This document shows, piece after piece, positions 1-4,727 of a stretch of 56,799 nt of DNA. The stretch comes from Candidatus Kaiserbacteria bacterium RIFCSPHIGHO2_02_FULL_49_34. GTDB lineage: Bacteria > Patescibacteriota > Minisyncoccia > Phycocordibacterales > UBA918. The DNA is taken from contig MFLE01000018.1 of NCBI GenBank assembly GCA_001781205.1, positions 1 to 56,799 of the forward strand, read 5' to 3'. Every line of letters begins with the position of its first letter. The stretch's first letter is position 1. Made by a program: the position numbers and the translations under genes. The notes under the pieces were generated by a model, which was given only the letters and a program-made list of their open reading frames with translations, searched no databases and had not been told where the DNA came from.

Positions 1-46
1 CCCGCTTGCACCGGGGAGGTAGCGGGTTCAAGTCCTGTCGGGTCCA
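1..46 (+). tRNA. tRNA-Ala(TGC), 5'-truncated by window edge
   Basis: Anticodon arm CCCG-CTTGCAC-CGGG, T-arm GCGGG-TTCAAGT-CCTGT, acceptor 3' strand CGGGTCC plus discriminator A; no encoded CCA. Confidence 0.85.
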
Positions 47-273
47 CAAAGACATAAAACCAACGCGTCTAGCGTTGGTTTTATTCTGTCTTTGTGAGAC
101 CCGACAGGACTTGAACGCCGGAGCCGGTATACAAGATTGTTACTGATACGAAGCTTTAGCGTAGTACGGTAACAATACTTGTCGGCGAGGCGGGGTCGGC
201 AACGCTTAGTATTTTTGGAGCGGCAGCGAACAACAAATACTTAGCGATTGTGACCAAGTCCTGTCGGGTCCAC
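47..273. mobile_element. tRNA-3'-associated structured element, copy 1 (at tRNA-Ala)
   Basis: Inverted copy of tRNA 3' end at 98-116, core 117-255 (GCCGGAG...GAGGCGGG...GCTTAG...CTTAGC...TGTGACC), 19-bp direct copy at 255-273 of 29-47; same layout at tRNA-Phe. Confidence 0.7.
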
Positions 274-390
274 TGCCACCAACAGCGACTAGGCCCGCCC
301 CAAACAACTCCTGAATTCAAGAAATTAATGCAATAATTCCAGAGAATTAAGAATCTAACATATGGAGAGCCGACACGCCTCTTGCTCTAG

Positions 391-415
391 CTCTGGATCC
401 CGCCAGCATGACAAA
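391..415 (-). repeat. REP-like dispersed repeat (TTTGTCATsCTGrCGGGATCCAGAG)
   Basis: Reverse complement matches 21259-21283 at 23 of 25 positions; related partial copy near 544-564. Confidence 0.6.
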
Positions 416-441
416 TGTTAGGTACAATGTTTTAAATCGAC

Positions 442-469
442 TAATGGTTAAAATCGATTTTAACCATTA
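442..469. repeat. Perfect 28-bp palindrome
   Basis: TAATGGTTAAAATCGATTTTAACCATTA; near-identical copy at 21204-21233. Confidence 0.8.
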
Positions 470-695
470 TCTATTTTAGAGAATTCCACCCCCATTTTGT
501 ACCCCAGGGCAGCCTCTCTTGGTACTCCGTACCAATTCACCTCCTCATCCAGGAGGGATCCAGATTCAAAGCGGTGTTCACTAGTCTTCTTTTGTTGTTC
601 TGTAAAATAGAAACCCCCTAGTAGTGTTACATTTAATTTCTGGACTGAGGCACTTAGAGCTCACCATTTCACCAAACCTGCGGTATACTACCCCC

Positions 696-1142
696 ATGAA
701 TGAATCACCACAACAGTCACTTGATTCGACGCTTAGTAACGAGATGTATGTATATCAAGGGAAGACATACGCACGGAAGCGTCTGTATAAGACATCGTCT
801 CTTAAGACGATGCTTATCGGCGTGTATATTGCGATAATGCTTGTGGTGATTGGCGGGGTTGCGGCATGGTCTCTTGGGGTGTCGATTACGCTCCCAAATT
901 TCTTACTGGGAATTGAAGATACTGCGCCGATGGTGCAGGTACGTGAGCGTGGGGCGGCACCGGTGACCGCTCCTGCAGCGGTTGCAACAACAACGGAAGC
1001 AGAAGGGCAGGTGGAGACGTCCGTTGAGGTTTTGGATGACAGTGCGACAAGTACTGCGACAACGACTGATGCGGTAGAGTCCGTACAAACCTCCGCCGAA
1101 GTGCTTGCTGCAACCAGTACGGAGGCCGAGACGACTCCGTAA
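696..1142 (+). CDS. Hypothetical single-pass membrane protein with Ser/Thr/Ala/Glu-rich tail
   Basis: ORF 624-1142; ATG at 696 lies 6 nt after TATACT; hydrophobic segment LIGVYIAIMLVVIGGVAAW. Confidence 0.7.
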   Translation: MNESPQQSLDSTLSNEMYVYQGKTYARKRLYKTSSLKTMLIGVYIAIMLVVIGGVAAWSLGVSITLPNFLLGIEDTAPMVQVRERGAAPVTAPAAVATTTEAEGQVETSVEVLDDSATSTATTTDAVESVQTSAEVLAATSTEAETTP

Positions 1143-1180
1143 ACATAACAAAAGCCGCAGTGAAGCGGCTTTTGTTATGT
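1143..1180. terminator. Bidirectional intrinsic terminator
   Basis: ACATAACAAAAGCCGC-AGTGAA-GCGGCTTTTGTTATGT between convergent CDS and tRNA-Met array. Confidence 0.8.
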
Positions 1181-1269
1181 TGGTAGCGGGACTTGGAATC
1201 GAACCAGGGTTGCTCCGCGGAGGTCATGAGTCTATCTTGCGAGATACCCTAATCTCCACCTATCCCTGC
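1181..1269 (-). pseudogene. Degenerate tRNA-Met copy (distal unit of tandem array)
   Basis: 3' 30 nt match tRNA-Met with one mismatch including CCA; 5' part diverged with insertions; CAT retained. Confidence 0.7.
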
Positions 1270-1305
1270 ACAGAAAATACCAAGCTGAATGCCTGGTATT
1301 TTCAT

Positions 1306-1395
1306 TGGTAGCGGGACCTGGAATCGAACCAGGGTTGCTTCGCGGAGGTTATGAGTCTACATTGCGAGGTACTTATAATCTCCACCTATCCCTGC
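1306..1395 (-). pseudogene. Degenerate tRNA-Met copy (proximal unit of tandem array)
   Basis: 3' 30 nt identical to tRNA-Met; remnants GGGATAG, GTACCTCG, CTCATAACCTC with insertions; period 125-126 bp. Confidence 0.7.
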
Positions 1396-1431
1396 ACAGA
1401 AAATACCAAGCGTGATGCCTGGCATTTTCAT

Positions 1432-1505
1432 TGGTAGCGGGACCTGGAATCGAACCAGGGTCTTGAGGTTATGAGCCTCACGAGGTACCTCTCCTCTATC
1501 CCGCT
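1432..1505 (-). tRNA. tRNA-Met(CAT), initiator-like
   Basis: Full cloverleaf AGCGGGA TA GAGG AGAGGTA CCTC G TGAGG CTCATAA CCTCA AGAC CCTGG TTCGATT CCAGG TCCCGCT A CCA; A11-U24 pair. Confidence 0.92.
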
Positions 1506-1617
1506 ATGTATTGTTACTTCAACAGCGTAATTCTGCTATTTTGTTCCAGTACCATAGCAGAAGTTTATCAAAAAGTCCAGTCTTTTAAGCCTTATATATC
1601 ATGGTATAGTGTCAGGT

Positions 1618-2634
1618 ATGTTAGAAAAATTCTTCGGAGCAGGGAAGATTGGTATAGACCTTGGAACGACGAGTGTGCTTGTGTATGTGCCAGGAAGGGG
1701 GGTAGTAACCTATGAACCCTCTGTGGTGGCGGTTTCCGACGACCAACAGATTCTTGCGGTGGGTGATGAAGCGAAGCGTATGATTGGACGTACGCCGGAG
1801 CATATTCGTGCGTATCGCCCGATGAAGGATGGGGTGATTGCGGACTATCGTGTAACAGAAGCGATGCTTCGGTACTTTTTGCGGCAGGCGTGTGGACGAT
1901 TTAATCTACGCAGACCTGATGTGCTGGTGTCGGTGCCGTCGGGGGTATCTTCAACTGAAAAGCGCGCAGTGATTGAAGCGGCACTTAATGCCGGGGCAAA
2001 GAATGCATATGTGCTCAAGGAGCCTATTCTTGCAGCGCTTGGTGCAGGACTTCCCATTTACGAACCGCGCGGTCACCTTATTGTCGACATTGGTGGCGGC
2101 ACGACAGATGCTGCGGTGATTTCACTTGGTTCAATCGTTGCTGCGACATCGGTACGCTGCGCAGGGAATAAAATTGATGCCACGATTGTCGATTATGTCA
2201 AGAAGACCTACAATTTGGCAATTGGTGAGAAGACTGCAGAGGATATTAAAATTGGTATCGGTTCAGCACTTCCCGTGGAAGAAGAGCTTTCGATGGAAGT
2301 GAAGGGCCGTGACTTGATGTCAGGACTCCCGCGTACTATAGAGCTTAAGACGAACGAGGTCGTGCGTGCCACGCAGCGAGAGCTGCGTGAGATTGTTGGT
2401 GCGATTAAGGCGGTGTTTCAAGATACGCCTCCAGAACTTGCGGCAGACATTATTGACTACGGGATTATTCTTACGGGCGGTTCGTCACAGCTCCGTAACC
2501 TTGCCGAGTTCGTGAAGCGTCGCACTGGCGTGAAAACACAAATGGCGGATCAGGCGCAGTTTTGTGTGGTGAAGGGGACAGGTATCGCTTTGCAACATCT
2601 AGATACCTATAAACAAGCTCTCATTAGAAAGTGA
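1618..2634 (+). CDS. mreB: Rod shape-determining actin-like ATPase MreB/Mbl
   Basis: IGIDLGT, EPSVVA, RPMKDGVIADY, VDIGGGTTD, LTGGSSQL motifs; ATG at 1618 follows TGGTATAGT. Confidence 0.95.
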   Translation: MLEKFFGAGKIGIDLGTTSVLVYVPGRGVVTYEPSVVAVSDDQQILAVGDEAKRMIGRTPEHIRAYRPMKDGVIADYRVTEAMLRYFLRQACGRFNLRRPDVLVSVPSGVSSTEKRAVIEAALNAGAKNAYVLKEPILAALGAGLPIYEPRGHLIVDIGGGTTDAAVISLGSIVAATSVRCAGNKIDATIVDYVKKTYNLAIGEKTAEDIKIGIGSALPVEEELSMEVKGRDLMSGLPRTIELKTNEVVRATQRELREIVGAIKAVFQDTPPELAADIIDYGIILTGGSSQLRNLAEFVKRRTGVKTQMADQAQFCVVKGTGIALQHLDTYKQALIRK

Positions 2635-2701
2635 TTCTTCCAAGGTATGCTGAGATATTTGCGATTGTAATTTTTCGTGATTTATGTATAATGCGGACAC
2701 C

Positions 2702-2974
2702 ATGGTACATGAGAAGGACGACACAGAAGCGCTTCGGCGAGAGCTGCGTGAACTTCGCGCAGAATTTGATGTCACTTCGTCTTTGGTAAAAAAGATACAC
2801 CGCCATACCGTGACGGCTACCGCGATGCGGTTCCTCTGGCTTGGTATCATTGTGGGTATTCCGATTATTGCGTACATTTTTGCAGGCTCGTTCATCGAGA
2901 GTGCAGCAAATTATCTCAATCAGCAAATTCATAATGTGCTCGAGGTGTATATACAGCAGTCTACGGGAAGATAA
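2702..2974 (+). CDS. Small hypothetical membrane protein
   Basis: Coiled-coil-like N-terminus then one TM helix; TATAAT 9 nt upstream of ATG. Confidence 0.65.
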   Translation: MVHEKDDTEALRRELRELRAEFDVTSSLVKKIHRHTVTATAMRFLWLGIIVGIPIIAYIFAGSFIESAANYLNQQIHNVLEVYIQQSTGR

Positions 2975-2983
2975 TTTCCAAAC

Positions 2984-3111
2984 GCTTGAGTAGCTCAGCC
3001 CTAGATCGCCGGCCGCTAGCGCGGACCGGGCCGGCGAAGCTGCTAAGGATGTCCGCCTCCGCGAACGCTACTTAAAGTGTTCGCTAGCGCGAACACGGCA
3101 GATAGAGCACT
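2984..3111 (+). pseudogene. 5' fragment of tRNA-Phe with ~104-nt structured insertion in the D-loop
   Basis: GCTTGAGTAGCTCAG (2984-2998) and TAGAGCACT (3103-3111) are identical to the tRNA-Phe sequences on either side of D-loop TTGG. Confidence 0.7.
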
Positions 3112-3139
3112 TGTTGCATGGAATGCTGTAGTATAAAAT
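3111..3139 (+). promoter_or_regulatory. Putative sigma70 promoter of tRNA-Phe
   Basis: TTGTTG-17 nt-TAAAAT ending 7 nt before the tRNA. Confidence 0.5.
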
Positions 3140-3146
3140 TATATAT

Positions 3147-3219
3147 GCTTGAGTAGCTCAGTTGGTAGAGCACTCCCCTGAAGAGGGAGGGGTCACCAGT
3201 TCGACCCTGGTCTCAAGCA
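3147..3219 (+). tRNA. tRNA-Phe(GAA)
   Basis: Cloverleaf GCTTGAG/CTCAAGC, anticodon loop CTGAAGA, T-loop TTCGACC; no encoded CCA. Confidence 0.93.
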
Positions 3220-3537
3220 CAGTAACAAAATAATAGCCGGCTTTGCCGGCTTTATTTTGTTACTGTGCTTGAGAAGAAAGGCGCCTGCGCGCCTTTTGTC
3301 CAGGGTCGAACGCCGGAGTCATGTTTTTCTGACCTCGGGGGAAGAAAAACAGACGAGGCGGGTGAGAAGGTCTGGGAGACCTTCGTAAGGGGTTGTCGAC
3401 AGATTATGAGGCGGATGCCGAAATAATATGTCATACAACCTGAACAGAATCTGTAAGATTGGGCAGTGCTTAGACTTTTATGAGCATAGCGAAATAAAAG
3501 ACTTAGCAACTGTGACCGACCCTGGTCTCAAGCACAG
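3220..3537. mobile_element. tRNA-3'-associated structured element, copy 2 (at tRNA-Phe)
   Basis: Inverted copy of tRNA 3' end at 3263-3311 (interrupted by a 25-nt hairpin), core 3312-3517 homologous to 117-255, 21-bp direct copy at 3517-3537 of 3202-3222. Confidence 0.7.
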
Positions 3538-3569
3538 ATACTACTCACGCCTCATGGCATGAGTATGTT

Positions 3570-3605
3570 ATAAAAAGCACATACACATTTGTATGTGCTT
3601 TTTAT
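3570..3605. terminator. Intrinsic terminator-like hairpin
   Basis: ATAAAAAGCACATAC-ACATTT-GTATGTGCTTTTTAT. Confidence 0.65.
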
Positions 3606-3632
3606 GTGGTGTTCATATGCTATACTCACGAC

Positions 3633-4727
3633 ATGGAAAAGATACGAGCTTTTATTGCGTGGGGGAAGAAGAACCAGCATCACTTGTTGTCGGCTTCGTT
3701 TTTCGTGGGTTTTTTGATTGATAGTCTGACCCTCAATCGTGTCGATGATGCGCTCGATAATATTATCCTTGCGTCATACATGAGTATCATGATGATATCG
3801 ACACTCGTGCTGTATGCGGCGCTTGCGACAAAGTTGCCAGATCGGATTGTGCCGTTTTGCCGTGACTACATGCCGTACCTGATGCAGTTCGCGTTCGGTG
3901 GTGTGCTTTCGGGTATGCTTATTTTCTACAGTCGTTCTGGCTCATGGGAAGCAAGTTGGCCATTCTTGGTTATTATCATTGGTGTTATCGCGGGTAATGA
4001 ACTTCTTTCACGACGTGCTGAACGGCTTGTCTTTAATCTCTCAGTGCTGTTTATTGCGCTCTTTTCATACACCGCGCTTATTATTCCCGTGCTGATCGGA
4101 CGAATGGGAGAAGTGGTGTTTGTGATTAGTAGCATTATTGCCCTCGGTGTTTTTATAGTGTTCGTACAGGCACTTATCGCCATTGTGCCGAATTTCATCA
4201 GGCTTCATTTGCGCTCAATTGTATTTGCCGTTGCAGGCATTTTTGCTACGATGCAGTTTCTCTATTTTGCAAACCTGATTCCGCCAATCCCACTCTCGCT
4301 CAAAGACATCGGCATCTATCATAAAGTGGAGCGAACACAGGAGGGGAATTATCTCTTAACCTACGAGCGGCAGGCATGGTGGCGCTTTTGGAGTCGTCCA
4401 GATAAAACGTTTACTTCAAGCGGGGGAAGTGTGCCGCATTGTTATTCGTCGGTCTTTGCGCCGACAAAACTAGCAACGGCGATTGTGCATGAGTGGCAGC
4501 AATATGATGAAGCGTCTGGAGAATGGCTGTCTCGTAATACGGTCTCCTTCGGCATTGCGGGCGGCCGCGCAGAAGGGTATCGTGGTTATTCATATAAAGA
4601 AAGTTACACGCAAGGGAAGTGGCGGTGCCTCGTACGTACAGAGCGCGGGCAAACAATAGGCTATACAACCTTCCATATTGGCGAGAAGTCCATTATTTCC
4701 CTTGATCTTGAAACGGTTATCAAGTAA
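3633..4727 (+). CDS. Multi-pass membrane protein with C-terminal DUF2914-like domain
   Basis: About 7 TM segments then SVFAPT...HEW...GGRAEGYRGYSYK...GKWRC motif pattern. Confidence 0.75.
   Translation: MEKIRAFIAWGKKNQHHLLSASFFVGFLIDSLTLNRVDDALDNIILASYMSIMMISTLVLYAALATKLPDRIVPFCRDYMPYLMQFAFGGVLSGMLIFYSRSGSWEASWPFLVIIIGVIAGNELLSRRAERLVFNLSVLFIALFSYTALIIPVLIGRMGEVVFVISSIIALGVFIVFVQALIAIVPNFIRLHLRSIVFAVAGIFATMQFLYFANLIPPIPLSLKDIGIYHKVERTQEGNYLLTYERQAWWRFWSRPDKTFTSSGGSVPHCYSSVFAPTKLATAIVHEWQQYDEASGEWLSRNTVSFGIAGGRAEGYRGYSYKESYTQGKWRCLVRTERGQTIGYTTFHIGEKSIISLDLETVIK

Follow-up and report, generated by a model that had tools for sequence, protein, structure and literature searches.

The DNA analysed here, referred to as the window, is a stretch of 56,799 nucleotides that makes up contig C18 of the genome of Candidatus Kaiserbacteria bacterium RIFCSPHIGHO2_02_FULL_49_34 (G000; 828 kb in 26 contigs, 97.7% complete). 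The window starts inside a tRNA-Ala(UGC) gene. The 3' part of the gene lies at positions 1-47 of the + strand, where Rfam gives a tRNA match at 1-46 with its 5' end cut off, and the 5' part is found on contig C16, which terminates in this gene and shares 62 nt with the start of the window. The segment from C56 of the tRNA to the gene end (29-47) is a replacement 3' end that is carried by an insert. It is followed on the same strand by a trailer at 48-97, consisting of a terminator-like hairpin (stem 54-84, loop about 67-71, palindrome centre near 69) and a return strand that bears a 3-nt pyrimidine bulge. Next comes an inverted arm of 19 nt at 98-116, an exact reverse complement of 26-44 that runs from G53/T54 to the acceptor strand, with an extra A directly 5' of it facing the 72/73 boundary. 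The core that adjoins the inverted arm is about 139 nt long, from 116/117 to 254/255 on the + strand, and has two domains. The first (116-192) comprises helices P1 and P2 together with a long hairpin whose apical motif is conserved. The second (194-255) is a long hairpin with conserved internal and apical loops and the 3' end GTGAC C. A direct arm, 19 nt starting at C56 and identical to 29-47, closes the structure at 255-273 of the + strand; by analogy with a tRNA-Leu locus described below, it would be the displaced original 3' end of tRNA-Ala. A preliminary description of the window, made from the sequence, had reported this order of hairpin, inverted arm, core and direct copy, and every feature was found where it had been placed.

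The second copy in the window is inserted in tRNA-Phe(GAA) (3147-3220, + strand), where the segment from C56 to the gene end is again the replacement end. The trailer and terminator-like hairpin occupy 3221-3262 (stem 3235-3251), and the inverted arm extends over 3263-3310 in two pieces, the acceptor strand at 3263-3274 and the T stem and loop at 3300-3310, with a small optional hairpin (3275-3299) between them. At 3311-3517 lies a core longer than that of the Ala copy, and the direct arm at 3517-3537 is 21 nt long, from C56 to 3 nt past the tRNA; all these features are on the + strand. A 97-nt insert within the Phe core, 3363-3459, is missing from a related strain (run X8), and part of it is found again beside another element at locus L018. 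The breakpoints of the Ala and Phe copies are identical, the inverted arm ending at the complement of G53/T54 and the direct arm starting from C56. The common layout claimed for the two copies holds, with a split inverted arm and a longer core at Phe.

A different kind of repeat is present on the - strand of the window at 1190-1505. Here tRNA-Met (1432-1505) is followed by two partial copies of itself, each with a terminator-like hairpin. The 3' end recurs exactly over 34 nt at +101, and two repeats of 13 nt are found at +226 and +240; the spacing is about 125 nt, and the sequence between the repeats resembles a scrambled tRNA-Met body. This repeat kind is distinct from the core family.

Repeated ends of this sort could in principle be produced by faulty assembly. 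Assemblies do break within the repeated core (Logan contigs stop near 160 and 242), and the window itself begins inside tRNA-Ala. Against this, one contig from a public run (X5, record 24) extends over 3006-4197, and with it over the entire Phe copy, with 2 differences, and contigs of runs X1 and X2 cover 1-160 and 242-406/522. Since contigs from independent public runs cover the junctions, and identical junctions appear in runs from different studies, the duplications are not an assembly artefact. The layout also recurs in 43 genomes and more than 70 metagenome contigs. An artefact, which the preliminary description had named among the outcomes that would refute it, retains practically no probability.

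How far the element is distributed was determined with simple motif searches and then, as the preliminary description had proposed, with a covariance model based on eight copies of the same genome. The model gives 14 matches in the 828 kb of G000. All 14 are located downstream (within 300 nt) and on the same strand of 14 different tRNA genes: Lys-UUU, Gly-UCC, Val-GAC, Gly-GCC, Ala, Asp, Leu-UAA, Leu-GAG, Arg-GCG, Trp, Leu-CAA, Phe, Val-UAC and Arg-CCU. The element thus stands at 14 of the 36 tRNA calls made by ARAGORN, Gly-UCC being called twice at two contig ends. Chance adjacency to a tRNA is expected for about 1% of matches by our own arithmetic (36 tRNAs, 828 kb), so an association seen in 14 of 14 cannot be due to chance. 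Counted by eye, CCA is encoded in one or two of the 14 element-bearing tRNA genes (Arg-GCG clearly, Val-UAC ambiguously) and in 11 of the 22 tRNA genes that have no model match.

The family extends well beyond this genome. The model matches 43 of the 61 genomes of the order, G000 included, and finds no match in the other 18. Leaving G000 aside, matches occur in 31 of 36 genomes of the window's family and in 11 of 24 genomes of the order's other families, with at most 13 copies per genome. Elsewhere in the phylum, an even sample gave a match in 1 of 150 genomes, also behind a tRNA. More than 100 metagenome contigs match the family. A pattern scan of metagenome contigs gave at least 119 stretches, and 80 loci among the matches listed contain 76 model matches.

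Whether cores also occur away from tRNA genes was a point on which the tRNA-targeting idea could have failed. Among the genome matches examined, 51 of 64 have a same-strand tRNA within 450 nt upstream according to ARAGORN, and two tmRNA genes and one tRNA cut by a contig end, added by Rfam, raise this to 54 of 64. The corresponding number for the metagenome matches listed is 61 of 75 with a same-strand tRNA or tmRNA upstream, and five of the 75 have less than 150 nt of upstream sequence. Taken together, 115 of the 139 matches examined (the metagenome part being among the matches listed) follow a same-strand tRNA or tmRNA gene at a distance of no more than 450 nt. Four others lie behind the 3' ends of protein genes, twice rplL (L7/L12), once rplE (L5) and once ftsZ (FtsZ), and in all four the C-terminal coding end recurs 3' of the core.

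Nothing resembling the element was found in the collections searched. Rfam at E ≤ 1 returned tRNAs and sub-threshold hairpin look-alikes in window 1-4000, with nothing for the core, and on 14 further loci it returned tRNA and tmRNA only. A blastn search with 26-273 gave no match in plasmid and phage collections. In viral contigs the domain-1 pattern occurs in no stretch. The 3'-end pattern does occur there in nine, which were discarded as chance; none of the nine fits the model, and the one tRNA present is far from the match. A literature search, mostly outside subscription journals and supplements, found no description of such an element. The family is thus large and apparently undescribed, and consists of protein-less units of about 230 bases in the 3' ends of tRNA and other conserved genes of a groundwater order with small genomes.

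The layout is common to the family. The gene body runs to T55 and is followed by the replacement 3' end from C56, the terminator hairpin, the inverted copy, the core and the old 3' end. The inverted copy extends about 2 nt further into the gene than the replacement end, to T54. Among 42 tRNA-adjacent copies (within 130 nt), 18 have an inverted arm that reaches exactly to T54 and abuts the core, and 19 have a direct arm that starts from C56. A second junction class is found at the acceptor end in 13 of the 42, where the palindrome enters the acceptor end by only 2-7 nt and the direct arm appears to begin at position 72/73. A tabulation of breakpoints, which the preliminary description had called for, gives these two classes. 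The picture in that description of a T-loop element targeting tRNAs was right in that the unit is non-coding and repeated and has fixed T-loop breakpoints and target-specific arms. It was too narrow in confining the unit to the T loop and to tRNAs, given the 13 acceptor-end copies and those in rplL, rplE and ftsZ.

The arms differ at every locus, and the hairpin is nearly uniform in size. The distance from the tRNA end to the core is 64-69 nt in 67 of 71 distinct T-loop copies, which makes the hairpin from T54 to the core about 88 nt long throughout. Two imperfections recur at unrelated genes, the extra A opposite the 72/73 boundary and a pyrimidine bulge of 2-3 nt after the T run of the terminator. 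A small hairpin at the boundary of acceptor and T stem, like that in the Phe inverted arm, is also present at Leu-UAA type B, Val-UAC and L014. Across the wider set, inverted arms are frequently imperfect, their median ungapped match to the gene end (at most one mismatch) being 14 nt, as compared to 19 nt for the direct copy; an impression from G000 that the inverted arm is the better kept of the two fails in this set. The 2-nt stagger had also been considered as a sign of a serine or IS110-type recombinase. This was dropped; the dinucleotide does not recur at the right junction, and both enzymes are absent.

The core, 90-140 nt long in the family layout, is a conserved folded structure of two hairpins. 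RNAalifold applied to an unfitted MAFFT alignment of the eight own-genome copies predicts two hairpin domains, and 21 of the 52 predicted pairs in this alignment stay paired through changes on both sides. The compensatory changes reported for the first two copies are thus real. In an alignment of 66 matches from 62 loci that was fitted to the model, 94.6% of cells are paired, against 69.9% in shuffles and 31-45% in slid controls. Changes on both sides occur at 48 of 52 pairs in the fitted alignment, and 0 of 500 shuffles equal this. G-T and T-G cells number 95 and A-C and C-A cells number 19, which identifies the tRNA-sense strand as the folding strand. The hairpin loops carry TAGCGT, TAGCGA or AGCGAA, and the helix junction carries GCCGAG or GGCGAG. 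Divergent core types exist, type B at Leu-UAA and another in L030, L033 and L081. The predicted fold of the unit as a whole has a z-score of -12.5, and the replacement end and the inverted copy are able to form a stem of about 42 bp.

What has been inserted becomes clear from a comparison of filled and empty alleles. In the sister genome G001, tRNA-Leu(CAA) has no element, and its 3' end, terminator and downstream gene align with the direct arm of the G000 copy and the sequence beyond it. Because the empty allele aligns from the direct arm onward, the direct copy is the end that the gene had originally, and the insert consists of everything from C56 of the working gene through the end of the core. 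The preliminary description had taken the direct copy as a product of the element; the Leu(CAA) alleles, and likewise rplL, reveal instead an original 3' end that was displaced.

The functional 3' end beside the gene body belongs to the insert and, judging from sequence divergence, can derive from another lineage. The rplL copy in L075 is the clearest case. Its working and displaced ends both read as the C-terminus of L7/L12, one residue apart, and differ at many DNA positions. With the peptide nearly the same and the DNA diverged, both ends must have evolved as real genes, the replacement end in a diverged lineage. Similarly, in the G000 elements at Lys and Gly-GCC and in the second one at Leu-UAA, the direct arm departs from the working end at stem positions, and the inverted arm matches the working end at all three. 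The T stems of G000 and G001 differ with compensating changes.

Elements are gained and lost between sister genomes and are inserted serially. G001 has 5 model matches versus 14 in G000. The sites common to the two are Ala, Val-GAC and Gly-GCC, and the core subtype differs at Val-GAC and Gly-GCC. A recent transfer of the Ala copy between the two genomes was considered and found to be weak, the element region being 93%, the upstream sequence 87% and the downstream gene 74% identical. Behind the newer elements at Arg-GCG, Gly-UCC, Trp and Val-UAC there are traces of older cores, each accompanied by one more direct copy. Leu-UAA has two elements in tandem, the gene-proximal one with a divergent core; identical tandem units are present in L017, and more doublets occur in metagenome contigs. 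These nested remnants and tandem copies show that insertion was serial. Palindromes of the same kind that lack a core are found at Trp in G001 and at Cys, Glu-CUC and Met in G000.

Several other arrangements were seen at tRNA genes. In L076 (tRNA-Trp of G036) and L072 (G012), elements of the acceptor-end and the T-loop class stand back to back behind one tRNA, and the junctions suggest that the newer element was inserted into the palindrome of the older one. The neighbouring Leu-UAA, Cys and Leu-GAG genes of G000 (C17:19590-20245) all have elements or remnants, and the Leu-UAA and Cys trailers have a nearly identical terminator hairpin. In G001 there are other insertions behind tRNA-Phe (L029) and tRNA-Lys (L021) that do not match the core family and that leave a degenerate second tRNA copy, most of Phe and the last third of Lys. 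Also in G001, a unit of about 120 nt lies on both sides of an opposite-strand tRNA (L023, behind tRNA-Asp and around tRNA-Tyr).

All this makes a mobile insert that replaces the gene end very probable. An alternative is that only the core moves or is gene-converted and that the inverted arm arises locally, by template switching during replication (quasi-palindrome extension or snap-back) that starts at the terminator hairpin, which is in substance what the preliminary description had suggested. Terminator hairpins and cores do assort independently within the genome. The Mantel correlation between them is r = -0.19, with 4498 of 5000 permutations at least as high, which contradicts the idea that hairpin and core travel together, and the Lys and Ala copies have cores that are 98% identical and hairpins that are 66% alike. 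Because the two do not co-vary, either the unit does not simply move as a block or the cores are homogenised by gene conversion. Local copying also fits an inverted arm that stops exactly at the insert boundary (at T54 in 18 of 42, with no gap to the core), and it finds precedents in the G001 tRNA-Trp palindrome, which has the hairpin and an inverted arm to the arm/core junction followed by unrelated DNA, and in the Cys, Glu-CUC and Met trailers of G000, which reach back into the acceptor strand. The failure to find a transposase is on its side as well. It leaves unaccounted for, however, the displaced direct copy and the silent-site differences of the replacement end in rplL. Plain copying would not make the extra A and the 2-3 nt bulge that recur at different genes, and the near constancy of the hairpin (a tRNA-to-core distance of 64-69 nt in 67 of 71 copies) also speaks against it. 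Local origin of the inverted arm is accordingly rated as unlikely.

A mobile insert must also be weighed against a functional RNA gene tied to its neighbour, its spread being secondary. A read-through transcript would fold inverted arm, core and direct arm together. At tRNA targets this would give a minihelix of acceptor and T stem in which the core replaces the T loop, with roles in tRNA-like processing or in antisense control of 3' maturation. The strong covariation on the sense strand is what such a gene would have, as are an extra A located where the discriminator base of a tRNA is unpaired, an optional hairpin placed precisely between acceptor and T stem (in Phe, Leu-UAA type B, Val-UAC and L014) and the keeping of copies in very small genomes. 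The terminator-like hairpin, however, separates the gene from the core, and a scan with a weak consensus detected no promoter-like site from terminator to core in either window copy. In the acceptor-end and protein-gene copies the stems do not resemble a tRNA, and in many copies pairing between the inverted and the direct arm is poor (median 9 nt). Presence is strongly unlike between the sister genomes, and 18 of 61 related genomes have no match. A neighbour-bound RNA gene is therefore given a low probability, the same as local copying.

If the insert is mobile, the enzyme that moves it is not an obvious one. The elements, of about 230 bp, contain no reading frame. The whole genome of G000 has one Phage_integrase match, C13:1586-2116, and by eye this sole tyrosine recombinase, encoded at C13:1175-2155, looks Xer-like (XerC/D). 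Searches of the same genome (97.7% complete) for resolvase, IS110 DEDD, Y1_Tnp, rve, DDE_Tnp_1 and the TnpB zinc-ribbon domain gave nothing, with controls positive in each. RVT_1 likewise had no match at E ≤ 0.001, and control genomes were positive. As no reverse transcriptase was found, the RNA intermediate offered in the preliminary description is without support. Phage, plasmid and viral-contig collections gave no match to the family and so point to no helper. A full-length copy was looked for, in line with a suggestion of the preliminary description, in the 16.6 kb behind the core-less G001 Trp palindrome, and this stretch contains neither a second direct copy nor a core.

These results bear on a further reading, that the elements are decayed attachment-site remnants of integrase-carrying prophages or islands, comparable to cis-mobilisable elements after accretion. 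The target (the 3' end of tRNA or tmRNA), the direct repeat from the T loop to the gene end, and the tandem and nested arrays with the newest member adjoining the gene are all as this reading would have them. The size and geometry are nevertheless small and uniform, and the core is kept by base-pairing and not as protein-binding repeats. There is a single Xer-like gene and no other integrase, no long version such as a second direct copy within the 16.6 kb would have marked, and nothing similar in the phage, plasmid and viral-contig collections. Remnants of this sort are thus highly improbable.

The family is read here as a non-autonomous integrative element whose sites are for the most part tRNA T loops. 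Its components are a replacement 3' end, a hairpin resembling an intrinsic terminator, an inverted copy of that end and a two-hairpin core. In the mechanism favoured here, the element would act as a folded single strand. Base-pairing between the replacement end and the inverted copy would give a ~42-bp stem with the sequence of the target duplex. The terminator loop would close this stem on one side and the core on the other, so that the whole would resemble a dumbbell. The strand would be inserted where stem and core meet, by recombining there with the chromosomal stretch of identical sequence, and the reaction would be catalysed by a host enzyme or a putative helper. Since the insert lies between the two halves of a conserved gene, DNA uptake and homologous recombination could also spread it into the empty alleles of relatives. 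Xer is a putative host enzyme, by analogy; its usual target is dif, and none of the present results connects it with T loops. The composite, a protein-less integrative element of about 200-250 bp that replaces gene ends and acts as a folded strand, has about an even chance of being correct. The single-strand route taken by itself is a tentative suggestion. The data show no circular, single-stranded or otherwise free form of the element. The model gives no account of how one core came to stand behind more than 14 genes, each time with matching arms, and it leaves the independent assortment of cores and hairpins and the overhang of about 2 nt of the inverted arm unexplained. A more specific version, somewhat more doubtful still, has a free form that would be a single-stranded DNA circle of about 230 nt, folded as a dumbbell, integrated by a host enzyme and spread by uptake, with the core as its priming or recognition site. 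If true, this would be the smallest self-targeting integrative element known, its specificity coming from the sequence of the stem and not from recognition by a protein.

The element shares features with several known systems. Phages, islands and ICEs that encode integrases insert in the 3' part of tRNA and tmRNA genes and bring a replacement 3' end. The present insert resembles them in its T-loop or 3'-half position, in keeping the gene intact, in leaving the old end as a direct repeat and in forming arrays. The direct repeat and restored gene of these systems are present, but the integrase gene is missing; the unit has no gene at all in its ~230 bp, an inverted attachment copy, a base-paired core, and many target genes with matching arms. 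Integron attC sites recombine as folded single strands, with extrahelical bases at fixed places and the newest unit by the entry site. A folded strand with extrahelical bases at fixed places and the newest unit nearest the entry are seen here too, but IntI and attI are lacking and the stems copy the target gene. The motif order is also reversed, GTTCGA...TCGAAC as against the attC consensus RYYYAAC...GTTRRRY.

MITEs, REP/REPIN and palindrome-associated elements are short, non-coding, palindromic and multi-copy, and often lie behind genes. The present family has the same properties. Unlike these, it has no RAYT/Y1 transposase, its inverted repeats are copied from the target, and it inserts within a gene end and replaces it. 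Retrons and other reverse-transcribed elements have a reverse transcriptase gene, which was not found. In IS110 bridge RNA and in the omega RNA of TnpB/IscB, a structured non-coding part lies beside a target-complementary segment, and such a pair adjoins here as well. The partner proteins, however, were not found in G000, the arms of 10-30 nt pair with each other, and there is no Rfam family.

A parallel to the proposed folded strand is offered by the CTX phage and other elements that exploit Xer through a folded single-stranded attP. In CTX, a forked hairpin forms from two oppositely oriented target-like sites some 90 bp apart, and host XerC recombines it with a single strand exchange (PMC3089051). 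The present element likewise has inverted target-like sites about 50-140 nt apart that can form a hairpin (the stem of ~42 bp), a stem that mimics the target duplex, and tandem copies, and, if the proposal holds, it would by analogy also take its enzyme from the host. It differs in that the target is a gene end and not dif, that the stem varies by gene, copying tRNA, rplL, rplE or ftsZ ends, and that no phage genes are carried. The ssoA origins of rolling-circle plasmids have a conserved RSB, which contains GCCGAG, and a CS-6 motif TAGCGA (PMC6395029). Such origins are folded strands that prime lagging-strand synthesis on Rep plasmids. The family, as a folded strand of about 150 nt, has similar short motifs in its loops and at one junction, a resemblance in motifs alone, and it has no Rep gene and no plasmid match.

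More than one third of the tRNA genes in a 0.83-Mb genome carry the insert, yet no transposase was found. Either a host enzyme or plain recombination suffices to move such a site-specific element, or there is an enzyme or helper still to be discovered. If such an enzyme exists, a comparison of the 43 genomes with a match and the 18 without one could reveal it. The combination of arms that vary with the target and a constant core has the logic of a programmable insertion system. The insert also explains why assemblies of these lineages are fragmented at tRNA genes, and the covariance model is available for annotating the new structured element. In these bacteria the 3' ends of tRNA, tmRNA, rplL, rplE and ftsZ genes are repeatedly overwritten with foreign copies.
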